From positions 15,990 to 79,989 of the IMG/VR virus record IMGVR_UViG_3300021958_000045: a stretch of 64,000 nt of DNA. The stretch is one strand, 5' to 3'. The position numbers and the translations under genes are program-made. This document shows, piece after piece, positions 3,001 to 27,000 of this stretch; the stretch's first letter is position 1, and every line of letters begins with the position of its first letter. The notes under the pieces were generated by a model, which was not told the origin of the DNA, ran no database searches, and saw only the letters and a list, made by a program, of their open reading frames with translations. The stretch is from a virus. Lineage: Duplodnaviria > Caudoviricetes.

Positions 3001-6000
3001 AATTGCCTATCAAGAGCTGCCTCATCATAACCTGTTATTTGATTGGTTATATCTTGAGGATCTTTTTCGGTTTCAAAAATTGTATCTGGTTCTCCTGCCC
3101 ATCCTCCTTGCCCCCCTGTTTTAATATTTATACCTAAATCTTTTGCCACTTTTTCAGCGGTAGAAGAATCCATTGCTTGTGCAACACTAGATATTCCTCT
3201 AAAATAACGATCACTATAATTCTGCCAATCATCCCCAATAGCAGCTGGAGCCCAAGGCTCACCAGCTTTTGAGTCCCCTTCGTTTATTAAACCTTGGTTA
3301 ATTAAAAAATTTGGCAAACTAAAAGCTCGGCCAGCAAGCATACCTTCTTTTGTGGACCCTTGATTAAATTCGTTATTTATAAAACTAACTTTATCTCTTC
3401 TTTCTCTATAAGCATTCATGGTTTCTTGCATTTCTCTGTAAGCTGGAAGATGCTCTTTTCCTTTCCATTTATCGGAACCCAATTCAGTTTCTAAATGTCT
3501 GTAATTTTTAATATCTTCTGGACTTAATTGTAAATCCATTTTTTGTTTAAACAAATCTCCATATCTATCCTGAGATCTTTGATCAAGTTTTTGTCCCTTG
3601 CTTATAATAGACCTATGTAAACCTACATTCTGTATTAATTTCATTGCTTCTGACTGAGCTTTTGAAAAGTCTTCTCTGGAAGCTTCTGGAATACTGTTTT
3701 TATCGAGCATTGCAAGCTCTTTCCATATTTCTACAGCCCTAACTCCGCCTTCTGTGCCTCCATAGAAATAAGAATTTAAACCTTCTTTCAAGGATTCTCC
3801 GTATGGAGACACTTGCTTGACATATTTATTTTTTAGAAAATCTCTTACCCTGTCTTGAACTATAGATTTATTTTTATCATTTCCACTGCCATCATTTTGG
3901 AATATTTCTGCTCGAGATAAACCGCCATCAGGCCCATCTCCTAATCCTGAACCATCAAACTTAGTAGTTAAAGCTCTAAATATTTCAGGAGTTAAAGTGC
4001 CTCTTCTTGTGCCAGCTATTTTTCTGGCCGATTCATTATAGCCAATACCTTCTTCTGGGTTAAATTTTGCAGGATCAAATCTATCGTCCAGTAAATTAAT
4101 TTCGTCAGGAGTAATAATTCCATCTTGATTTACATCAAATAACTTAAAGTCTTTTTTAATATTTTGTACAAGCGCATCTGCAGCTCTTTCGTCTGCACTT
4201 TGGATTATGTTTCCATCTTCGTCCAAAACATTTGCAAAATCTTTTTGAGCTCGTACAGTTCCATCTGCTTCATCTATAATTCCTCCTGCAAGCCTTGCTC
4301 CGCCAGATTTTAACAGATCTTCTTTAACAGGCTTTCTAAAGTTTTCAATTAATAATTTATTCCAATCTTCTGTTCTTGTTGAAACGTCTTTATCTCTCCA
4401 CCAGTTCATAGAATAACCAGCGGTCATTAATTGGTTATTTAACTTTTGCTTTGACTTTTGAATCTCTTCGTAAGGTATTGCCCCTAATAAATCATCATTT
4501 TTTGTATCTAAGCCCATACCTTTTCTGTAGGCACTTTCCATTGTGGCGGTATATGGCAACATTTCAGGCAATCCTTTAACAAGCTCCCAGTCTTGCATGG
4601 CTTGTTTTTTCTGGTCAAGCAAACCATTAAAACTTTCTCCCTGATTAGAACCTCTAGTCATTACAGAATCAAAAAGATCTCTAAAATAAGTTCCTCTATA
4701 GCTCTGATTACCTATTTTGCCCTCAAGAATAGCTTGTCCAGCAATAGAATCTTCCTCTCCTGTCCTTAAATAAAGCCCTTTTTTCTTAAGTAATTCAGAA
4801 TATGTTTCTTGATCTCTAATAATACTTGCATAACTAGACTTGGTGTCCCTAGAGCTATGCCATTCGTCAAGATCTTTTTGAAATTGTTTTGACGTTGATT
4901 TTTTTGTAGCAGATGATCGTCCGTCAGCGAATATGTTCATTGTCCTTCTCAGCTCAAATTCATCATCATCATTAAAAGTTTTTTGTTGAATAATCTGAGA
5001 GCCAGGACTAGCTTTTTCAAGTTTTTTCTTTTCCAATCTTAATCTTCTGTTTCTCGCGACCATCATCTGTATAGCTTCTTCTCTAAGCATCCATCTATCT
5101 TTTTGCTCTAATACGTTTTTACTAACGTCACCAGGTGCAGATTTTTTTGAGTCTTCGATATTACTTTTACCAGTATAAAGAGGATTCTTGCTAAAATGAT
5201 TGTATAAACTTCCAACCTTTCGATCTAAAGAAATTTCTTCATCTATACCTAATTGCTTACTTAATCTATTAATAGTTGATTCAAATTGAGTTTGAGAATT
5301 TTTTCTCAATTGCATACCTTGTGCAACTTTATCTGGAGCAGTTAAAAATGGTTTTAAATTTGCTCTTTTTAGTTTTGTTTCGCTTAAAGATTTAACTATT
5401 TCTCCTCTTTCCGCTGTAAGATGATCTCTTTCTTTTTGAGATATATTAGATGTAAGCTTTTTATCAATGACTGACATCTCCGCTTCTCTTTCGCTTACTC
5501 TTTTTCTTAATTTAATATCTTCTTCTCTCTTAGATTCTAAACCTCCTTGGAACCTAGATACATAACCATTAATATCTTCAGGATTCAAAGAACCAAGTTT
5601 AAGAATATTAGCTGAGCCTACCTCAGCACTTTCGAAGTCTTTATTAATTGCATCTACTTGAGTTCCATATCCCAAACCTTTTTGCATAGAATAACCAGCT
5701 TCTGTTATTTGTGTTTTGGATGCTTGAACCCCCATGTTTCGTTCTATCAAAGCTTTATTAAATTGTGCATGCATAACTTCATCTGCTTGAAGATCAGCAA
5801 GAGCTTCATAGTATTCTACATCTTGCCCTTGCATGTCCTTGCTTTGATACTGCGCCTCTTCTCCTCTTTTTAGCAGGGCAGACATAGCACTTAAATATAT
5901 TCTCTGTTCTTTAGGAATTTTTTCATCAAATTCTTCAAAAGTTTTAAATTTGGATTTATTATAATTCTCTTCGCCATATCCAGGTCTTCCATACTCTCTG

Positions 6001-12000: not shown

Positions 12001-15000
12001 TGAAGCTGAGCTTGTGCAGTTTGAACTCCTGCAACTTTTTGAGCACCTACCGCTCTTCCATTTGCATCATATATTACAGGTTTGGTTTCTACCGTTGGAG
12101 GATGAATGATTCCCGTAGAGTCCATAGTTCCAATTAAAGTTCCATCTGAAGCAAGAATATCAAAATCTGACAAGACAGTGCTTGGGCTTTTCGAAGGTAC
12201 AATCCCAGCCTGCCTAAAACTAACGTTACCGTGCTCTGGGAAAAGTTGACTCTTAGCTCTCCTTATTCTTTCCAAAAGAGGGGGATCAATAGTTTCAGCT
12301 CTTAAACTAAATAATCCGTCTACTCCTTCGGGCGAGGTAGAGCCGCCTATCACTTGCCTAAGTATTGATTGTTTTTTACTTTCTTCTGGCGCGTCTTTAA
12401 TTGGTGAAACCGAACCAGAAATATTCATAGCTCTTTGTTCTATTAACTCTTCTGCCATTTCAACGACTGGAGACTTTTGGCTTCTATGAGAAACTACAGA
12501 AGTTGTCCAAGGATTCCTGGGCGTAGATGCTGGCCGTTGAAACAAAGATTCACTAGTGGCGCTTGTAGAAGTGGTTACAGATCTTTCATTAGAAAGCTTT
12601 TGTAATTTTGAAAAAGTTGTTTCTTCGCTAGCAATATTTTCGCCAGATGCAAGATCTTGCATTTGTTGCGTCCGCACTATGTTGTTTTGTCTTTCTACCT
12701 CTTCAATTTCAGACCCTTTGTAACGTCCTACAAATTTTAATGCAGTTTTCTTTATTTTGTCCCATGAAGATAATTCTCGTAATTCAGGGTTATTATATGT
12801 TAACACATCTTTAAATTCTGAACCTTCCCCAATCGCCATGCTTGTTCGAGTTCTACCTAAACCCTTATCAATTTCCGCTTCTTGAATTTTTCTTACTCGC
12901 TCAATTTCTTCTTGTCTCTGCTGAGCTTTTTGTTCTTCAAGAGTCCTACGAGCTTTTTGTTCAAGCTCTTTTTGTCTTTGCCGTTGTTTTTTCTGTCTAT
13001 TTTTTCTAATTCTATTTGCTTGGATAGCTCGTTGAATTTTTTCAGTTACTGAACGTTCCCTTTGAAGATAATTCTCTTTTTGTTTGTGAACTCTATCTGC
13101 ACCAGTGTCAACTTCTCCATCAACTTTTTCGGCTAATATAGACTTAACGTCTTCATTTGTCTCTAAGGGGTTTGTAGGAGTATCTCCACTGTAAGTTCGG
13201 ACTCCTTCATTTTCTATTTGACTAAGAATCTCTTCTTCTTTTACTGGGTTTATTCCCTGTTTTTGTTCCGTGCTTCTGCCTGTTAAAATTCTTAAGGTTT
13301 GTAATTGGCGCTTTAACCAAGTTCCAGCCTGTCTAACAAAACCTCCTTCTGCAGATTTCCCTATTTCTTTTGATGCTTGTTCGGTTGCATTTTCCGCAGC
13401 TCGTGCAGTAATAGCCTCTTGACTTCTAATATCGTCAGCTAGATCTTTAGGTATAATATGGCTCTCGAGCCCTTTCATATTTTGCTTTGCAGCTTCAGTT
13501 AAAGTTCCAACTTTTGGAGCGCTATCTCCCAATGTTTTTGTTGCCCTAACGTTTGGCCCTGCGTCTGATCTAGCTTTCGGACCACCTCTTTCTACTGCTC
13601 TTTGAGTTGCTTTAGCGGCTCTTTGTCTGCGCATTGTTTCTTCTGAATCTGCATCCTGATTTGCCACCGCTTGTCTTATAGCTCTATTTTCTTCTCCAGT
13701 AAAAAGTTCAAGTTCGTCTATATCTGGATTGGTAGAATCAATTTGAGAAATTATATACTTACCACTTTGGAAATCTCTTGGTTTTGCTTTTGTTGCTTCT
13801 TCTACTGGAACAACTTGCCCATCTTTATTTCCTCCCATATATTCAATTACCATAGGTCTAAAAATTTGAGGTTCACCGATTTCTGGATCCATAAACTTCG
13901 CTTGATCAAAATCAAAATTCTCAACTCCGATTTTAGAAAATATCTGTTGATTTTCTTCCTTACGCATTTCCTCTATAAACGCACGTTGAAGTTTACTTAA
14001 GCCTCCTTGAGAATTTCCTTGTAGCCCATGAACTTGTTTTAATAAAGCAGCTCCCGAACTATTCCAATTTGCTACTGCAGAAGGCTTAATTGATTCAGGT
14101 TCTAAATCCCAAATATCCATATCTTCTCCAAGAGCCCTTGCTGTATTAATTATTCTTCTAGCTCCTTTTTGAGGCGCCGCAAAGTTAGGAACGTAAGGAT
14201 TTCTTTCGAGGTAGCCTCGCATAAATTTAGTTTTATCGTCAACGTCTTCATCTAATGTTCCGTGAGATGCAAAGGCTCCTTCTTGTGGGCCGAGTTTATG
14301 AACGCCTCTAATTTTATTAATATAATTTGTTGGGGCTACGCCACCTTCATCAATTTTATTAGTAACAACAGGCCCATCATAAGAACTAAAATATTGAGAT
14401 TTTCCACCTGGAACTGTCAACTGTATATTGCTAATAGGATCCATTACCCCTTTGTTTTCTAGAGCGGTTATTTCTCTAGAGATTGATTCGCTTGCTCCTG
14501 GCCAATATTTAGCAACCCTCAAGGCGGCTCCGCCAGTAAATGTTTTGCCAGCGAGTTTTTGAGCCATTGTTTGTTTTGGGGCGTAAGTGGTTTCTCCCCA
14601 AACACTTTCTGAATATACTTCTTGCTCTTTTGTTTTTTGAGAATCTTTTCTTTTTGAAATAATGTTTTGATGTAAATTATTTCTTAATATTTTTTCGTTC
14701 TTGACTAAGTTTTCAGCTCTTTGTTCCGCGCTAGGACTAATAAATTCTTTTTGTTTTTGTATTCTTAATCCAGTTTTGTGAGTATTTTGAATTTTGGTTA
14801 AATAATTGCTTTCTGCTACAGAGCCATCATCAACTCTATTGGTAATTACGGAATCAATAATACTTTTAGGCCCGATCTCAGATAATTCTTGATCGGGGAC
14901 TGTGAATTGAATTTCATTAATTGGATTTTTAACGCCTCGATCTTTAAGAGTTTTTATTTCTTTTTGTATAGTTTCTTTTGCTTCTGGATAATAATTTGCA

Positions 15001-18000
15001 ACTCTTAAGGCTGCGCCTGCGTTATAAGTATCTCCGATGCTAGATTGAGCCCTTGCAGATTTCCAACTGCTTTTCTGGTTTGCGATGGAATAATTATTAG
15101 CAATCTGGTTTGCAGAAGCATTTTGGCTTGATCGCCTTACGGTTGATATAGCCTGAGTTTGAGATGAAGAATTATCGATCATTCCTGTCATACTAAACTC
15201 TGAATCTCTAGGAGATAAATCATGAACGTTTTCAATTTTATTGAGATAACTTCTAGGAGTAACATTACCTTCATCTACAGTATTAGTAACAACTGCCCCT
15301 TGGTATTGAAAATTTGCCAAAGAATTAGAAGATGCAGGAATAGTGAGTTGAACATTATTTAAGGCATTTGTTATACCCTTCTTTTCTAAAGCTTCAACCT
15401 CTCTATAAATAGAGTCTATTGCTCCTGGATAATAGTTGGCAACCTGCAAAGCTCTGCCTCCTGTAAAAGTTTTTCCAGCAAATTGCTCAAAACCTCTTGA
15501 TTCTTTTAATTTATCTTCATTTAAAGATTCTTTTAAACCCCTTATAGGACTTTTCTTTCGGTCTCTTGTTGAAGAATTTCTTGCAAAATTTGGTACGCCC
15601 CCTCGACTTGGAGCGGGCTGTGGAGGTTCTGTAGAATTAGCTCCTCCATGAATTGTAATGTTGCCACTAGTATTTATTTTTGTACTACCGCCAATATTCA
15701 CATTAGCTCCATCGATTGCAATATTTTGAATTTTTTGTCGAGCTTCGTCTTGTTGCTTAGAAGCTTTTGTTCTTTGTTCTACTTTTTCAGTATCTGCTAC
15801 TTTAATATTTCTAATAGCTTTAACTATTTCTTCTGCAGATATTCCTTGTTCTGGTTGCAAGGTTTTAGATAATGTTTGAATACCTTCATCAATGCTAGAA
15901 AGTAGTCTAATTTCTACCCCATTATCCCCTAATTGATCTGCAATACTTGTCAAGTCGTTGAATCCCATAGTTCTAGGATCAAGGCCTAATTCTTCTAAAT
16001 CGATATTTAAAGCCTCTGCAGTACTTTGAAGAGTTTTTCTGGTTAATTCTGATCGATCCGAGGGAGTAGATGCAAGCGCTCCTTGTTGAGCAGTTAATTG
16101 TTTAATCATATAGCTCACCATTTTTTGAGTGCCATCAGGTAAATCTTGTTCAACTAAAGCTTTTTTCATGCTATTTACTACGTCTCCCATATCAATATTA
16201 GCATCTGCTTTAGCGTCAAAACCTGTTTCTGTTTCGACTCCCAACATCATTAATATTCTATTGACATTACCAATTGCATTTTGCATATTGGCTTGTTGTC
16301 TCATATCATTCAACTCTGGACTTTTCCCAAACAAACCTTCCATCAACCCTACCATATCTTGCGTTGCTCTGGCCTGAACATCTAGATCTAATTGAGTTTC
16401 AGGCTCAAAGCTTTGACCAAAAGCGAACTGTTCCATAATTTCGCCTTCTCTTGCTGTAACATCCAACTGCGTACTTTCTAAATTTTTTCTAGCTTGAAGC
16501 AAGTCCTCTCTCGCAGCAATTTCATTACCTAATTTTAAAAGAGCTATTTGTTGATTTGCTTTTTCATTTAATTGTCGAACAGAATCAATTAATTCTTGTT
16601 CTTCTTGGGTTCTTTCATCAAAATCTATACGTTCTATCGCCGAAACTATATCATCAGCCATAAATCTTCCATCTCCTTGCTCTAGCTCGCTAGACTTTAA
16701 ATACATCTTATTTAAAACATCAGCCAACTTACCAGAAAAAACAGAGCCATCCTCTCCTTCAAAATCCTCCATTTTTGTGTCTTTCATTAATTGATTCACA
16801 AATTTAGAAACTTCAAATTCTGTTCCTGCAGCAGTTTCTGCATTTATTCTGGTAACCGAAAATTCTTCTTGGGCTGACCTAGCTTCATTTGGAGTCATAT
16901 AATTCATGCCAGTCATTATAGACAGCTCTGAATTAAATTGCTTTTCAGCAATATCAAATGCTTTTGTGATATTCGAATTTAATTCTGAAATACTTCTGCT
17001 GACAGCAGTAGAAAGATTAACAATTGTTGATTTTAAATTGCCCAAAGCACTAGAAGTCTTTCCAACTGCTTTGCCAGCTTCAATAGATTCTTTTCTCAAT
17101 TTTAATTGCTCTTTTATACCAACTGTAAAATCTACCATACCTTCATCAGGAATATTATCTACAATTTGGTCAAATAAAGTTCTGGTTTCTTCATCAAGAG
17201 TGCTAGAAAATTCTTTTATAGTTGACCTTATATCTTCTGCAGAAAACTCCTCAAAATTAATTTTGCTTAATTTTTTTGATAAGCTAGTAACCTGCTCTTC
17301 TGCAAGTTCTAGCCCCTGAACAGACTGCATGCCAATATTTCTAATTTCTCCTCGGGCTTCATCTTTTAGCTCTCCCTTTTCTCCTCCAAAAAAAGGAACA
17401 AAATCTGGCAACTGAGTTGGACCGAATCCAAACGGTAAAACTCCTTCCCTGTTTTCATTTGCGGCTTGAGCTTTGATAGTTAACTGTCCTAATTGATTAA
17501 CCTTAAGTGCTGAAGCGGAAAACTTCTCTAAAGCTGTTGACATTTTTTGAACGTCTCCATTTGCAGTAACTAACGCGCTTCTCAAATCATCGATTGCGCT
17601 ACTGCCAGAAGGAAAACTTTCTATTTGTTTCTGCAAAGATTTAATTGCCTTTGTGATATTTTCTGGGTCTCCACCTTCAATTGCAGAATTTAGCCTAGAT
17701 TGCGCGGAGACTACTTGCGTTGCACTTTCAATGGCTTTTCCATTTATTTGTATATTACGTTCAATTTGATCTCCTTGTACTTTCAAACTCTTTGAATACT
17801 GATCTAACACTCCGTTTAAAGCCCCGACTGACGCAGCAAGAGCAACCCACTTTTTCTTGTCTGTGATCATTGATGTAATCGCAGCGATTTGAAGAGCGTC
17901 GCCAGCAGCATCTGCTGCGTAACCTCCAGCAGTACCCGTTTGTCCTTCAATGCCCCCAAACATCATTTGGCCCATGAATATAGTATTCATCATGCCTCCC

Positions 18001-21000
18001 CCGCCACCAAACATACCTCCTCCAGTAGGAGTTGGAATTGCAGCGTCGGCAGCCTTGCTACCTCCTCTTTTAAACATTTTAGGTATAAATCTACCAATAA
18101 AATTTGGTACGCTAAAAGTAGAATGAGGAACGTATCCATTTGCAACTAAACCATGCTTTTGAGGATTAATCCCTTGAGATATTGAGCGCGAAATTCCTTG
18201 ACCCAAACCTCTTGGTTCGTCAATTGTATTATAAACTCCAACGCCTCCAGGATTACTTTCGTTTTTTAGTCTATTACTCTGTCCAATCCTAATCTTGTGC
18301 ATTGGTATTCCAGCTTGGCTCTCTCTTTTAATTGCTGCGCCTAAAGCATCATTTCCGCGCGAAGCTGAATTTACATTTAATGCGAAATTCGGAACGTACC
18401 CATTGGACAAGCGTTCTTTAGAAATTTCTTTTCCTTGAGAATATATAGATTCAATAATTTCAGTTTTGCTATCTTTTTCTTTATTGTCGTTTTTTAAATA
18501 TTTAAATTCTCTATCAGAAGGTTTTTGTTTTTCTGGAGTATAACCTTGAAAGTATTTTTGAATAACTTGTTTATTCTTTCTTTTCTCGATAGATTCTTTT
18601 CTTCTATTTAAAACATTTTCTTTTGTACTAGATTCATTTTCTTGAAAATTGTCTCTTAACCTATACAGAGTTGAGAAATTATCTTCGCGACCAAAAACTC
18701 TATTTTCTTGATTAGTTGAGTTAGAGCTAACTTTATTAGATTCTAAAGAAAATCCTTGAGAGAATACTTCCGAAGAAGCTTGTTGGTTATCCTTAGAGAC
18801 CATGCCTTGAGAGGAACTTTTGGAATCGGTAGACACATCCTTAGAGACCATGCCTTGAGAGGAGCTTTTGGAATCGGTAGACACATCCTTAGAGACCATG
18901 CCCTGAGAGAAGCTTTTGGAATCGGTAGACACATCCTTAGAGACCATGCCTTGAGAGAAGCTTTGAAAACCATTAATAAAGTCTGATTGTTTAGACTTAA
19001 TCGATTCTGCAAACGAGCTATTAGAGCTTGATTCTTTTTCTCCGTAACTAATATAGCTATTATTAATAGTAGACTCAATTTTCTTTTCTTTTGCTTGAGA
19101 AGAGTCTTGTCTTTTAATTACAGACTGAGTATCGGCAGATTTATTGTATGAGTTAACCGATTTAGAATCACTTGCATTATCAATTTTTTGAGAAATCAAA
19201 CCTTGAGACAAAGAAATAAATTCATCTTGCTTTGATAAATCTTTTTCTTGTTCTTGTACAATTTTTGATTCTACATTTTTATCTCTTGTTTGTAAGTTTA
19301 TTTTTTCGCTCTGCTTGCCTAACGCATAACTTTGTTGAGTTACATTTCGATCAACTAATTTTGGTATTTTTTCTTGAGATAAGTTTTTATTAATTATAAA
19401 GTTTGGAACTATACCAGAATAAAAATTTTGATTAGATTTATAATAATTTTCTAATTCTTCTCCTGACCTCATGTAGCCAGGAATTTTTTCATGAGCTTGC
19501 TGACCTTGAGCGGTTTGTTTTCCTTTAATTGCTGCGCCTCTTAAAGCATTTGCAGAAGGCATTGCTCGAAATCTATTCATAGTTGCTTGTTTATTGGTCG
19601 CCGCCTTTTGTTTGTCATACTTTTCGAAATCAGCCTTTTCTTTTGCAACCTGCCCAGATAGCAAACCTTGATAATCTAATTCTTTAAGTATTTTATCTGC
19701 CATGCTTGCTTTAATATCTCCAGACTGAGCATTAGCTTTAAAATCTCCTATAGAACCATGGCTAGAAGGCCAATTAAAAAACTTTCTCAACTGGTCTGTA
19801 GGACCTCTAACATCAAAGTCTCCTCCTCCTGCATTAACTGGAATATTACTAAAAGCAGCATTTGCTGCTGCCTCAAAAGCGTTGCCAGCCATAGCGGTCA
19901 ATGTACCTTCATTAAAATGTTTTTGTACAACTCTATCAATAATCGAAGAATCTTGCATTCTGATTTCTTGTTCGCCAAAAGCTCTAACAAAATTTTCAGA
20001 ATGAGCTTTAACTATAGTCTTAACATCTCTTTCTACAAGATCTCCAATTTTTGCTATCCTATCCGCCTCTTTTGGAATCTTGGGATTTATGCCTTTTGAA
20101 TTCCAGCCGACTAAAAATTGACTTTGGTACTTTTTTGCATAAGGGCCGCTACCTCTAACTGTAGACTGAGGAGCTCCTCCTCCTCTTTGAGGAAACAATA
20201 AAGAATAATCGTAAGTAGTAAATGGCCTCAAATCTATAACATTATCTGGGTCATCTTGATATGGTTTATTTTTTTGCCTACCCGCTTTGCCTGCTGCTGG
20301 CGCAAAATTAGGAATAATTCCATCATTAAAAATTTGCATAACCTCATGTTCGCGAGAGCTAATTTGTGATGTCTTGTTTTGATTCCATCCAATATCAGAC
20401 TGAGGAACAATAGACTGCATAGACCTACCATAAAAATCATATTCTTTTCTGCCATATTCCTTCTTATTAAATTGCATGAGGGCAGGATCATTTCTTCTTC
20501 CGCTAACATTTAAAAACAATCCTCCGACTTGCTCAGCCCATTTTTGTATTTGGCCAGAAGCCATAGCTTGTTTAAATTTTTCTACTTCAGGGTATATACC
20601 CTTCTTTGGATTAGCTCCTCGATTTAACAACTTAAGAATTTTCTTTTTATTAAATACATTTTTCTCTGAAACCTGAGTAGAAAGTATATTATCTTTTGCG
20701 GGTTTATTTAATCCCCCTCCAGCAAATTCTTTAGCTATTGTTTCTGAAGTACTGAATGATGTAGCCCCAGAAGGAGCGACATTGTCTAACTCTCCAATAT
20801 CCCTGCGCCCAGAAAGCGGCCCACTAACATGAGACTTCACAAAATTCTGAATAATATTAATTACATCTTGAGGGGTTTGCGCTCCTTTAAAGCTTGGCAT
20901 ATTTTTACCAATATTAGGTCTGTCTAGAGTTGGATTCTTTTGCCCTCTATACAAAGTTAAATTTGCATAATTTGGTACAGTTCCTGCGCTTACATTTTCC

Positions 21001-24000
21001 AACTGTCTAATTTCAAATGGGTCAACGTTATAACCATAACCTCTAGAAAGATCAGGAAAATCTACTTTTAATTTTTCTTGTATATATTTATTTAACGATC
21101 TAAATTCTCTTGAATTAAAAAACTGTCTAAAATCTTCTTTTTGCGCTTCTGTCTTTGCCCTAAATAATCCATCCGCCCGAGACTCAGATTTTAGCCTTGT
21201 GTTTATTACTCCTCCCCTAGCCCCCATTGACATTAAATTAAACTCAGACAATGCCCTACTTATTTCAGCAAATTCTTCGTTTGAGTAATCTTTAATTTTT
21301 GATTTGCGCAGTGTATTTGGAGAGTACTTTCTGAAAATTGAAAAGTTTGGAACTGCACCGTATGCTAACTGAGGCGGCGAAGGTTCTGCCATTGGCGTTA
21401 TTCCGCTAGCATATGACTTAATTAAAGTTTGAAACTCTCTTGCTCTTTCTTTTCCTACTTTGGTATGAGATGGAGGTAACACCATTCCGCCGCTAGGTTT
21501 AAAAGGTAAGCTAAATGCTTTTTGTACATCTGCTCCTGTCGAATAAAACTTTTCTTTATTATTAACAACTACTCGCTCTTTCTTTCCATTAATCTCTAGT
21601 TTTTTAACTTGAGTATCTTTATATCCAACGTTTTGACCATATAACTGAGAAGCTTGACCAGCTTCTTTCATTCGGTCAGATTCAATACTAAAGTTGGGAA
21701 TAAACCCAGTTGCTAAAGTTTCAGTTTCTTGCGAAGTAACATCTGAAATAGTTCCGCCTGCAAAACTCTTAGAGTCTGCAGAAGAACTGCTAGAACTGAC
21801 ACTTTTAGAAACCATACCTTCTGCAAAAGTCTTGGAACTCGTAGAAGACTCGTCAACAGAAGTAAAACTATTTACATCTTCAGACCTCGAAGAATCCTTA
21901 AAGTTTTCTTTATATAATTGAGTTTGATAATCAGAATCACGAACTCGGTCTTTTTGCCTTGTAAAATTTGGAACAATGCCATGGCTTGCTATTTTAACTG
22001 ATTGAGGGTCATTCTCATATTGTTTCCTGAGAGAAATTAATTCTTTTTCAGAGTAACCTTTTTTGATCAACATTTCAAGATCAGACTTTGGCCCCTTATT
22101 TTTAATATAATTTTCTAAAAATAATTTATCATGCCAGCTTCTAGATGTAATTGTTTTACTCTTAAATCCATGTTTTGCTAGCATGTTTTGAGCGGCAGAT
22201 CTCTCCCCATTAGTTGCACCTCTTTTTGCAAGCTCTCTAATTGCCTTAATGTTAACAAAGTTTGGGACTGTTTCTGGAGCAGTAACAGAGAAATTGGGTA
22301 AAACCAACTCTTCATTTGTATTGGTTCTTTTTTGTTGTTTGGCGAACATGTATTCATTAAACTCTTCTTCAAGAGAATTTAAATCTTGTGTTGATACAGT
22401 TTTTCCAGTTGGAGAAATAATTTTATCTTTTTGGACGGTGAATTTTTCCTGAAATAATCTTTGTATATCTTGATCTTCTTTTCTAATTGCCTCAGATTTA
22501 GCTTTATTAAATTCTGTACTCTTTAATTGCTCTTGCTTCTTGAAAATTTCAGATTCAATTTGTTTAACTTTATCTGGGTTTTTGCCTGGGTTCGATGGTC
22601 GACTTAATTGGAATTTTTCTTTTTGAAGTGTTGTAATTTCTTTTTGTATTTTGTCATACTCAGTTTTATTAAATTTTTGCGCAAATTCCTTTGATTCGTA
22701 TACTATGTCTCTTGAACCCTTACCTGTTGGGCCCATAAGTGGATTTGTAACCTTTGATAATTGAGATGTTAAACGATTTAAAATTTTAACGTCTTGAGGA
22801 ATATTACTACCAACTCCATATGCATTACCAACAGAGAGATTTAATTTAGTTACTTTATCAGAAATGCTTTTATAATTTTTATTATGTATATTGTCTTTAA
22901 TAAATTTATTAAATGCGGGCGAAGCGAAATTAGGTATATGCCCATCTGACATAATAGCTAGACCTTTCATCTCTGCAAACTCTTGATATAATTTACTTAT
23001 TTGTTCTTCTGAAATTGACTCTGAACCACGAGCTTTCTTTACAAATTTTAATATATCTTCAGCACTGTCTACGTTTTTTGTAGTAAATTTTTCTGCGGAT
23101 TTTGCGAGGGCTTTTTGGGTATCTGTAGAAGTAAAAATTGTTTTTGAAACATTATCAAAGCTATCAGGATTGTATAGTCTTTTTAGGTCCGCTCCAGTTT
23201 TACCCATTGGGAAGGACTGATAATCTTCTGCCTTAAGAGATTGCACGTCTTTTATATTTACCTGACTAGGAACCTCTTCCCTCTTATTCTTCCAAGAGGT
23301 TAGTCGATCATAATTTCTATTGCCCGAAGAATTTTGGGCGACCTGAGTAGACTTAACTACGGCACCCATGATTTCAGGATAACCTTTTTGTGCAGCAAAT
23401 TGGGCAAACTCTTGAAGCTTAACATCGGAATCAAAAGAAATCTTATCTTTAGTTAGTTTATTTTGAGGTTTATGCCCAGAGATGAAATGCATTTTAGGGT
23501 TCTTACCCCACTGCTTAAACTTTGCATCAGGAAACTGCATCTTTGCAAGTTCCAAATCTTTTTCCATAACATACTCTTTACCACTCTTGGTTTGTTTAAT
23601 ATTAAACATTGATGGAATTCTTGCAAAATTAGGAATTAATCCTTGAGAATAATTTTCTAACTGAGGAACTTCTCCAGAAGCTCTTCTCCTCAACATCTTA
23701 CCTCTTGGCGTAAATTTATTTATTCTTTTTAAAATATCTTCCCGATGCTTCTTAAAGTATTCAATTCCTTCTTTTTTTGTTTTAAATTCTCCGCTAATTT
23801 GAGCTTCTTCTAAATGCTTTAATACAGAACCCATTTGAGGCCCTGGCTCTACTAATTTTTCTTGTATTAAATCTCGACCTTGTACAATTGGCTTAGGTGG
23901 CTCTTTGTATATTCCGCTTTCTTTTGCAATTGAGCTCATTCTACTAATATTCTTTTCATCGACTTGAGTAAATTTTCTTGCAGTTACATCGTCAGATAAA

Positions 24001-27000
24001 TTTTTGCCCATGTCAGATTCAAGCAATATTTGAAACTTACTTAAGTCTCCTACATCCTTAGTTAACCTATTAATAGATTTCTGCGTCAAATTCTGAGGAA
24101 AATTTGAGTGAAACATATGTCTTTCAACAAAAGGCGTTAAGTCTTTAGATAATTTACTCGCTTCTCCTTGAGACATAATTCTACCCAAGAAACTTTTCAT
24201 TGGCGCGACTCCAGCCTTTTCGTGACCGTAAGAAGTTATCGAGCCATCTTTGTTTATTTGTGTGTTTGTAACTTTGCCAAAATCATGCGTTAAAGCAGAA
24301 AACATCAATTTGCTTCTTTCTTTTTCTGGAAGCATTTGCCAATTTTTATTATTGGCCATTGCATTAGTTACAAGTTTTGTGTGATTAAATACATCTCCTT
24401 CGGGGTGATGCTTGGGAGACTGGGGAACTCCCTGCAATTTATCAATTTCAGGAAAATGCTTTATCCATCCAGACTCTTTTAGAAATTGCAAACCTTTTTC
24501 TGGATTGGTAGATTTAGATGCCCATTTCATCCATTCTTCTCTAACTCTTTCTTTTGGAAGATCTTTAAATTGTCCAACCATTTCTCGAGAATAGTTGATC
24601 AATTCTTTATCTGCAGAAAGATTAAACCTTCCAGCCATCTGCATAGATCTTAATACCCTCAAAGGGTCTTCTTTAAATCTAGGAGACGTAGGCTTCATGA
24701 TGCCGTCTTGTAAATCCTGCCTCCCTCCCAAGGGGTCAATAAATTTCTTTGTGAGAGGGTCGTAAGAAATAGAATTGATTGTTAAATCTCTTCTTTGTGC
24801 AGCTTCTTTGCGCCCCATATTAGGATCTACTTCAACCTCAAAACCTCTATGTCCAGCACCTACTTTCTTTTCTCTTCTTGGCATCGAGAACTCAAAATCT
24901 TGCCCCCCGCTTTTAGCTTTGAATACTCCAAAGTCTTTGCCAACTAAGCCTTCTTTAGTTAAAGATGGAGACAATATTTTTTGCAATTTTTCTTGTTCTA
25001 AACCAAAAACCTCAACATCCCAATCTTTAGGAAATTTGCCCATTAAAAAGTCTCGAGGAGCTCCGCCTACAATCTGAGCACTACCTCCAGCAGCTTGAAT
25101 TTCTTTTGATACTTTTTCAAGATATCTGGGGACGGGCATAGTTTCTGCCGCAAAGTTAGGGACAAGGTCTCTTTGTGTATTTTCTGGTTGAGCAAAGTTG
25201 GGAACCAAACCTTCAGCATTTCCACTACCTCTTCCAGAATGCTGGCCACTAAATTGATAATGAGTTCCAGTTATATTTTCATTTCTAAGGTTACGAATAG
25301 CTTCTATATTTTCAATTGCGTCATCGATCAGATCGTACTTACCCCCTTGCTTTTTCCAAATTCTCTCTAATAGAATCGCTTTCTTTTCTGCAGGCTTTAA
25401 ATTCCTATAACCAGGAACCCTTCCTCCTTTTGCTTTAATTATTTTTCCAGAACCATCGCTAGCAATTTTAATATTATTAAACATATCTGCGGTGGTCATA
25501 ATCTTTTCAGGATTAATTCCCCATTTTTTTAATTTTTCTTCAATAAATGGCACAGACTGTTTTGCTCGAGCAGTTAAGACAGTGACCGCTTGACCCTGAA
25601 GTTCTTTTGCTAACGGGGTAGGTTTAGCCAATCCTGCAGATTCAGCTTGAAACAAATCTTTAGACTTTACATTCTTAGAATAAGTGCCTAGTGTTTCGTC
25701 AAAATCATAAAATTTTCTAAAGCCTGCGTTTCTTTTGAGGGCAAAGTTGGGAACGAGTCCTTCAGATAATTTTGATACAGTTCTCTCTAATGTGCCAGCA
25801 TCTTTTGTAAAATTAGGAACAGCTCCTTCTGAATATTTTTTTAGAGATTTGCCTGGAGCTTGTTTTTTCTGACTCTCTTGAAGCTTGACAATCTTTTGCC
25901 AAATTTGGTTTGCTTCGCCATTTAACTGGCTAATCTTTGGATCTATTTCAGCTCTGGGCCTCCCAGATTGAGACAGTTGCTTTGCTTGTCCTAGTTTGCC
26001 CTGCCACATCTTTAAAAGCCTTGATCGATCTGACTGCATATCAACAGGCTTAATAAAATTAGGCACTGCTTCTTGAGAATTTAAATAACTAGCGTAATTG
26101 GGAACAACTCCTTCTGAATATTTCTTAGCAGACTTGCTAGATATTTGTTTCTTTTGTTTCTCTTGGAGGCCGACAATCCTTTGCCAGATTTGATTTGCTT
26201 CGCCATTTAGTTGACTAATCTTGGGATCTATTTCGGCTCTAGGTTTTCCAGATTGAGACAGTTGCTTTGCTTGTTCCAGTTTACCTTGCCACATCTTTAA
26301 AAGCCTTGGTCGATCAGACTGCATGTCTACAGGTTTAATAAAATTAGGAACTACTCCCTCAGAATAAAAGCCTGCCTTTTCATCTCTATTAAAATTCTTA
26401 TCCCCCTTTTTTAATATTTTTGTATATGCATCCATGGCAAAATATTCGCCAGATGCAGTTCCACTTAAAATGGAATTTTTTGTATTAAACCCTAAATTTG
26501 CTTCTGACCAACTATTAAATGACTCTATACCATTTTCTTTAACCCATTTACTAACTTTAGTTTTTAAAGATTTAATATTTTTAAATTCGATTTCATCATT
26601 TCCAATCTGAAAAGTTCCCGAGGTTGACATTCCTGGCTTGATTCTTTGTTTTAATTGTGGGAATGCATTGATTATGGTTTCCCAAGGAGTTTTGCCTGAA
26701 GAAGCACGAATTTGGTCAAAGGTACTGTGAATCTCTTTATTTTTCCATCTTCTTTTTCCTGTAAAGCCTGCGATTTTATCAAAATTTCTATTAGCTCCCC
26801 CCTTCATAGAAGGATCGTTTACATCTGCTCCTTTAGCTCTTTCTGAATATAAAATGTCAGTCTTGTTTTCGTAATCGTACTCTCCCTTGCCATAAGTAAA
26901 TCTAGTTGTTGTTCCAGTTTTTTTATCAGTTACTTGTATAATGGGTAATTGACCATTCCATTCATTAGTAGTCTTCATACCGTCGAACCCTTTAATATCT

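Follow-up and report, generated by a model that had tools for sequence, protein, structure and literature searches.

A predicted R-S-E ADP-ribosyltransferase cassette within a giant phage tape measure protein

What would an enzyme be doing inside a tape measure protein (TMP)? TMPs occupy the inside of the tail tube and are ejected before the DNA; the literature that we searched treats them as a ruler and a membrane conduit. The question is raised by a 64,000-nucleotide stretch of viral DNA (Duplodnaviria; Caudoviricetes), positions 15,990 to 79,989 of IMG/VR record IMGVR_UViG_3300021958_000045 and referred to below as the window, in which a first-pass annotation had placed an ADP-ribosyltransferase (ART) of the R-S-E type within a giant TMP. 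Based on translation, homologue alignment, structure prediction and structural comparison, we think it reasonably likely that this cassette is a catalytically competent, NAD+-dependent mono-ART of the R-S-ExE (cholera-toxin-like) clade, delivered by the TMP as cargo that would modify a host macromolecule. If so, this uncultured marine phage probably brings an enzyme that modifies the host into the cell, borne on the protein that precedes the DNA out of the tail.

The cassette and its predicted fold

The cassette lies at window positions 20322 to 20963, where translation of the minus strand gives 214 stop-free residues, TMP residues 2942 to 3155; the plus-strand reading of the same interval is full of stops and was rejected. 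The first-pass annotation had reported LYRG, SFSTS and REHEV, in that order, within one linker-bounded cassette of 214 residues, and this is what the translation contains, with the positions verified. Motif I, LYRG, is at 20943 to 20954, with its Arg codon at 20946 to 20948 (R16 in the numbering of the structural model). Motif II, SFSTS (model S79 to S83), is at 20745 to 20759, and REHEV is at 20340 to 20354, within which motif III, E-H-E (model E215 and E217), occupies 20343 to 20351. A His that is invariant in the alignment (model H55) is encoded between motifs I and II at 20829 to 20831. The cassette is bounded by an upstream linker, GTVPNYA (20964 to 20984), which carries the motif G-x-[VI]-P-N-[FY], and by a downstream linker, GIIPNFA (20301 to 20321). 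All of these features are on the minus strand.

The loose pattern R..SxS..ExE is by itself uninformative, being common by chance: it is present in 32 of the 207 windows of 214 amino acids (15%) of the TMP. A stricter pattern, [YFW]RG ... [FYW][ST]TS ... ExE[VIL], which was defined only after the sequence had been seen, is present once in the TMP itself and turns up in 2 of 500 shuffled versions. Conservation in related sequences is a stronger argument than these chance statistics. An exhaustive phmmer search of 1.84 billion representative proteins returned 16 relatives, each within a large protein, and pattern scans of marine metagenome contigs and IMG/VR viral contigs returned 30 further loci, which are largely marine, judging by record names such as TARA and GOS. 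The homologues are all embedded in large open reading frames (ORFs) of marine phage or metagenome contigs. No relative of the cassette was detected among 185,579 prokaryote genomes (GTDB), a tblastn search with the cassette matched none of 50,697 phage records, and a search for free-standing homologues of 121 to 513 amino acids in a collection of 5.8 billion proteins turned up gene fragments only.

The alignment comprises 28 non-redundant homologues with identities down to about 33%. R16 is kept in 27 of 27 sequences, H55, S79 and T82 are each kept in all 28, and position 81 is either S or T. E215 and E217 are kept in 26 of 26 aligned rows; the two rows outside this count are one sequence cut by a contig end and one that is misaligned and reads EQEI by eye. 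The middle residue of ExE is free, with ten different identities among the homologues. The ratio of nonsynonymous to synonymous substitution rates (dN/dS) is 0.08 to 0.17 against the four nearest homologues with computable dS, and by this measure the cassette is under purifying selection.

AlphaFold2 run with the 28-sequence alignment gave a predicted local distance difference test score (pLDDT) of 82.5 and a predicted template modelling score (pTM) of 0.81; on the single sequence, the pLDDT was 35. Both P-N-F linkers are low-confidence in the model, as expected of flexible connectors, the downstream one having a pLDDT of <50. The model has the split beta-sheet fold of R-S-E ARTs, the individual Z scores of its matches being modest, and the three motifs fall where that clade has them. 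The Arg of LYRG follows an aromatic residue where strand 1 (E11-18) ends, SFSTS supplies the S-T-S motif on strand 2 (E78-81) and is followed by a helix (H84-90), and ExE is at the start of strand 5, the last core strand (E217-222). Two more conserved strands, at about residues 102 to 109 and 159 to 162, have a helical insertion between them. A variable region is missing from some homologues.

A structural search of 48,161 PDB representatives with this model returned 43 chains at Z ≥2, about 39 of which, judging by their titles, are ART-superfamily folds. The top match is TreX (Z 6.0 to 6.1; root mean square deviation [rmsd] 3.1; 101 residues aligned), and the other leading matches are TccC3 (Z 5.1), Scabin (Z 4.9), pertussis toxin S1 (Z 4.4) and LT-A (Z 4.2). 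TreTu (Z 5.9) and cholera toxin A1 (Z 4.7) came up in a second structural comparison. Further matches are PltA, CARDS, Arr, PARPs, diphtheria toxin, iota-like toxin, ART2.2, HopU1, Vis, ExoS and Certhrax, together with the anti-CRISPR entry 6KYF, the ART AcrIF11. More weight is given here to the almost purely ART make-up of this list than to single scores. A language-model search points the same way as a lead only: its named neighbours are all of the ART clan (ART-PolyVal, Arr, PARP), with scores of ≤0.85, and the ART-PolyVal clusters come first at 0.85. A pre-ejectosome protein of cyanophage A4, a weak VIA match (Z 2.7), was dropped; the paper on it describes no ART there.

The ends of the structural alignments bear on the catalytic positions, with the limit that the equivalences are those of first and last aligned residues and not of a residue-by-residue superposition. 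At the start, model residues 6 and 7 pair with PARP1 852 and 853, residue 7 with PARP2 419, residue 8 with diphtheria toxin (DT) 13, residue 10 with cholera toxin (CT) 1 and residue 8 with pertussis toxin (PT) 1. Provided that the first strand has no gap, R16 would fall on PARP1 H862, PARP2 H428, DT H21, CT R7 and PT R9, the first catalytic residues of the respective families. At the other end, model residue 224 pairs with PARP1 995 and PARP2 565, and residue 222 with DT 153; E217 would fall on PARP1 E988, PARP2 E558 and DT E148. Agreement at both alignment ends in several unrelated entries would be hard to get accidentally. The spacing of H55 resembles that of the active-site His of the cholera and pertussis toxins (CT H44 and PT H35).

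Besides this limit on the equivalences, several results weigh against the ART assignment. Every structural match has a Z of ≤6.1, which the search tool itself rates as middling, and Foldseek found nothing at E ≤1e-3 in either PDB or BFVD, its weak rows being enriched in ARTs. Pfam, run on the cassette, on the cassette with its flanks and on all 28 homologues, found no ART family at E ≤10; the ART-clan families without a match to any of the 28 members include PF18760, PF03496, PF01375, PF02917 and PF26816. PHROGs and NCBIfam gave nothing meaningful for all 28 members, and neither phmmer nor hmmsearch matched any PDB sequence at E ≤10. Comparison by hhalign with the T4 enzymes ModA and ModB singly and with an 8-sequence ModA/B alignment gave nonsignificant probabilities of ≤4.4%; at 4.4%, the pairwise E was 0.009 and only the motif II region was in register. 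The ModA/B profile is thin, as ModB recruited only 6 relatives in a word-indexed search. Motif II and ExE are 134 residues apart, compared with about 40 to 80 in known toxins, and only about 8 residues separate ExE from the linker, where known ARTs typically have at least one more strand. The P-N-F segment, modelled with a pLDDT of <50, might supply such a strand. As to delivery, that a TMP cargo this large fits the tail, reaches the cytoplasm or is cleaved is a proposal only, and a motif scan, which is a weak test, found no HExxH or HxxEH peptidase motif in all 10,562 residues of the carrier.

Of the profile or structure search against ART folds that the first-pass annotation had proposed as a check, the structure search found ART neighbours and the sequence profiles found no family match. 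The annotation had named the lack of a predicted ART fold as grounds for giving up the idea; such a fold was predicted, and the reading is not refuted. At the level of prediction, its claim of an R-S-E ART is supported by the confident AlphaFold2 model, the ART neighbours and the placement of the motifs. Since no curated ART profile matches it, the cassette is a separate sequence family, new in that it is absent from Pfam, PHROGs and NCBIfam, and as an ART it would be a new lineage, with its target in marine bacteria.

Known ADP-ribosyltransferases and the likely substrate

The best structural matches, TreX and TreTu, are, like Tre1, antibacterial ARTs delivered by Rhs proteins of type VI secretion systems (T6SSs) (PDB 8S2M and 8S2N; PMC11606950, PMC9825190), and they superpose at an rmsd of 3.1 to 3.4 over about 101 of 128 to 130 residues. 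They too are compact ART cargo, carried at the end of a large protein that delivers them into bacteria, where they are thought to refold after an unfolded passage. In contrast, they have no detectable sequence similarity to the cassette (14% identity in the structural alignment), in which the stretch from motif II to ExE is longer by about 100 residues. The cassette is also carried by a phage tail rather than a T6SS and lies mid-chain rather than at a C terminus, and no immunity gene is expected for it.

The group of CT A1, LT-A, pertussis S1 and PltA shares the fold (Z 4.2 to 4.7) and has similar motifs: strand 1 carries an aromatic residue and Arg, a helix comes after STS, and the residue after ExE is hydrophobic. 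There is no profile-level similarity, however, and these toxins have eukaryotic targets, whereas the targets here would be bacterial. The cassette also lacks the A2/B-subunit apparatus of these toxins, and it has no disulfide because the chain is without any cysteine.

At the level of motifs, the closest sequences among those compared are T4 ModA and ModB (PF26816), which have in common with the cassette LYRG, S-F-[ST]-T-x4-A-x2-F in register, and EQEVM; the cassette SFSTS is in register with the S-F-T-T...A..F motif of ModB. ModA, ModB and Alt are R-S-ExE ARTs of a phage, and their action on the host comes as infection begins. Of these, ModA and ModB are early proteins that occur free, whereas the cassette is embedded in a TMP, and Alt is virion-delivered (PMC9503650) from the head, whereas the cassette would be in the tail lumen.

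The ExE motif is found in the arginine-directed ARTs TreX and Tre1, in the cholera toxin family and in the T4 enzymes (PMC11606950, PMC9503650), and because of this motif an arginine of a protein would be the likeliest acceptor. To name RNA polymerase or defence proteins as the targets, as the first-pass annotation tentatively did, is to guess.

The main rival concerns the substrate. It keeps the ART fold and the delivery and supposes that the substrate is not an arginine, the enzyme instead modifying RNA, tRNA or DNA, attaching NAD-capped RNA as ModB does, or hydrolyzing NAD+ or an NAD-derived defence signal. We regard this as unlikely, but RNA-repair neighbours keep it in play. Pierisin and Scabin, DarT and the tRNA-modifying Rhs ARTs modify nucleic acids. 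The structural matches include DNA- or RNA-directed and NAD-degrading ART folds (pierisin, Z 3.3; Tpt1/KptA, Z 2 to 3; MbcT, Z 3.0; RES, Z 2.7; and Scabin), a CCA-adding/HD enzyme is present in the same chain, so that RNA ends could be a theme of the cargo, and T6SS ARTs that target rRNA and tRNA exist (PMC11606950, PMC13617354). In contrast, the invariant ExE is the hallmark of arginine-directed protein ARTs among characterised toxins (PMC11606950), the best matches (TreX, TreTu, CT, LT and PT) are protein-modifying, and the H-H-h/KptA-type motifs are absent.

The tape measure carrier and the route of delivery

The cassette belongs to an ORF on the minus strand at window positions 3 to 29786, which holds residues 1 to 9928 of the carrier; 634 more codons lie beyond the left edge. 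The whole ORF is 10,562 uninterrupted codons (14087 to 45775) in a record of 79,989 bases, or about 40% of the contig, and the CheckV completeness of the record is 57%. Its N-terminal tape measure homology region (residues 44 to 449; 28440 to 29657, minus strand) matches PF10145 at residues 122 to 307 with an E of 4.5e-28 and PHROG TMP families with E values down to 2.4e-52, and tblastn with this region matches genes annotated as tape measure in Bacillus, Gordonia and other phages. The gene for a large terminase subunit is found upstream in the same orientation, and the TMP gene is followed downstream by five large ORFs on its own strand; Pfam on ten neighbouring ORFs of the structural module, those five included, found no family. 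In homologous loci, the TMP gene is followed by a weak Phage_min_tail gene. The tape measure setting given by the first-pass annotation therefore holds, in that the N terminus of the ORF matches PF10145 and PHROG TMP families and the gene is within a tail module. Judged by these sequence matches, the carrier is a real tape measure protein.

For the enzyme to work from this position, the TMP, lying in the tail lumen, would exit the virion before the DNA and bring the ART module to the host envelope and cytoplasm at the onset of infection. The module would refold within the chain or after cleavage at the P-N-F linkers, and it would use cytoplasmic NAD+ to ADP-ribosylate a host macromolecule, most likely a protein at arginine. 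Since an ART depends on NAD+, which is cytoplasmic, the module could work only if its part of the chain gets into the cytoplasm and folds once inside. In phage lambda, labelling from the cytoplasmic face reaches the TMP at the inner membrane during injection (PMC13190303). Enzymatic activity, cytoplasmic delivery, release from the chain and the kind of target are what we infer for the present case. The carrier has no cysteine in any of its 10,562 residues, and homologous giant TMPs have 0 to 2 in 1,500 to 5,000 residues; this absence would fit unfolded transit through an oxidising periplasm. The only strongly hydrophobic segments of the chain (about residues 59 to 80 and 420 to 445) are in the N-terminal tape measure region, the remaining ~10,000 residues being hydrophilic.

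Among the modifying enzymes of polyvalent proteins delivered with the virion, ARTs are described as the most frequent, and also as cargo packaged in the head (PMC9503650, PMC5512222). The ART-PolyVal proteins (PF18760; PMC5512222) resemble the present chain in having many effector domains on one virion-associated polypeptide, with ART a frequent one, and the chain analysed here likewise holds a candidate ART, a CCA-adding/HD enzyme and many more linker-bounded cassettes. It differs from polyvalent proteins in that its anchor is a tape measure domain, in that its modules are split by a P-N-F motif, and in that HExxH is absent; the built-in metallopeptidase (MPTase) of the published polyvalent proteins (PMC5512222) was not found in the giant TMP, in which Pfam found no peptidase family. 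A conceptual parallel is offered by actinobacterial contractile injection systems (CISs), in which TMP-like effectors such as Sle1 have swappable functional modules and a tail-lumen protein serves as the vehicle (PMC13277306). The words "tape measure" are absent from PMC5512222 and PMC9503650, and full-text literature searches that paired tape measure with ART, polyvalent and enzymatic domains found no description of a TMP-ADP-ribosyltransferase fusion.

What is proposed here is a known kind of virion-borne effector on a new carrier, the tape measure protein: phage-delivered ARTs, namely T4 Alt and the polyvalent ARTs, are known as head cargo, and here the same chemistry would be on the TMP. 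Phage TMPs with embedded peptidoglycan hydrolases are known; to our knowledge, the passengers described in TMPs so far have the cell wall as their site of action and work outside the cytoplasm, and no NAD+-dependent cytoplasmic enzyme in this role came up in the literature that we searched. Should the module work in the infected cell, parts of the TMP reach the cytoplasm in a foldable state, and tails of the siphovirus type can carry enzymatic payloads far larger than has been assumed. The catalytic Glu pair offers a clean loss-of-function control.

Another explanation does without delivery. The ART might be active in the producing cell late in infection, on host or phage proteins, on itself or on parts of the virion, and its presence in the virion would be incidental. 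The gene does lie within the late structural module, and NAD+ is at hand in the producing cell, whereas refolding after ejection is a proposal only. However, this explanation accounts neither for the lack of any free gene, the module being always tethered between linkers in large ORFs of which the whole ones are TMPs, nor for a cysteine-free chain of 10,562 residues, which fits unfolded passage through an oxidising compartment. We consider it improbable.

The two explanations that deny catalysis fare worse. A degenerate, non-catalytic ART-like fold might be kept to take up length or to form a structural part of the ruler, and the atypical motif spacing and the seemingly short C terminus of the fold would suit this, as would catalysis being so far a prediction. 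However, all catalytic positions are invariant in sequences down to about 30% identity, in contrast to the variable surface loops and middle residue of ExE, dN/dS is about 0.1, and a constellation of R, H, S-T and ExE is not expected of a spacer; we consider a degenerate fold very improbable. That the cassette is not an ART at all, being a product of chance motifs and a misleading model, can be set aside almost entirely, since the frequency of the loose pattern, the modest Z scores and the nonsignificant Foldseek E values are outweighed by a neighbour list from 48,161 representatives that is almost wholly of the ART superfamily, by several independent alignments with catalytic residues at both ends, and by language-model neighbours that are independently of the ART clan.

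Modular architecture and other cargo

As a delivered ART, the cassette would be one of many swappable, linker-bounded cargo modules along the giant TMP. There are 24 loose P-N-[FY] sites, 16 of them strict G-x-x-P-N-[FY], at TMP residues 660 to 5200 (window positions about 14180 to 27800, minus strand), and the motif G-x-[VI]-P-N-[FY] marks the borders of every cassette. In BLAST comparisons with homologous large proteins, the borders of cassettes common to other TMPs coincide with P-N-F motifs. Four full-length homologues (3,383 to 4,959 amino acids) likewise begin with PF10145, and the N-terminal tape measure region is collinear among the whole TMP homologues. The ART module, in contrast, is at residue 1160 of 3,383, 1527 of 4,959, 2179 of 4,493, 1320 of 4,046 and, here, 2942 of 10,562, and its neighbours differ from phage to phage. 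As far as these sequence comparisons go, they show that modules have been shuffled among related tape measure proteins.

Taken together with the predicted fold, this architecture suggests, tentatively and with rather less confidence than would be needed to prefer it, that the giant TMP is a train of effectors. Its P-N-F-bounded modules, shuffled between phages, would be threaded unfolded and free of cysteine ahead of the DNA and would act at time zero, after refolding or cutting at P-N-F. An alternative to a cleavage site is that the P-N-F motif is a handling or chaperone-binding signal. If such a train does exist, cytoplasmic phage enzymes would have a route into the cell separate from that of internal proteins packaged in the head, and the ART would be a handle on how far TMPs enter the cytoplasm.

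The most widely shared modules are the ART and a segment of ~100 residues between two P-N-F motifs (TMP residues 3796 to 3899; 18090 to 18398, minus strand), which has 38 to 45% identity in 9 of 10 homologues. In other giant TMPs, this segment is often directly after the ART module. A complete nucleotidyltransferase of the CCA-adding/poly(A) polymerase family with HD is encoded at 23760 to 25073 (minus strand; TMP residues 1572 to 2009) and matches PF01743 (6e-19), PF13735 and phrog_2244 (7e-66).

Three tandem units of ~150 residues, 32 to 50% identical, occupy TMP residues 4767 to 5179 (14250 to 15488, minus strand), and a duplicate of ~70 residues, 78% identical, is present at TMP residues 1141 to 1200 and 1223 to 1295. 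The C-terminal half has borderline EF-hand-like calcium-loop matches at 729 to 779 and 4098 to 4160 (minus strand), to PF13202 (5e-6) and PF00036 (1.4e-5), at or just under the cut-offs. For the large terminase subunit (TerL), identity to terminases of Bacillus and Clostridium phages does not exceed 28%, indicating no close cultured relative, and the GC content is 36%.

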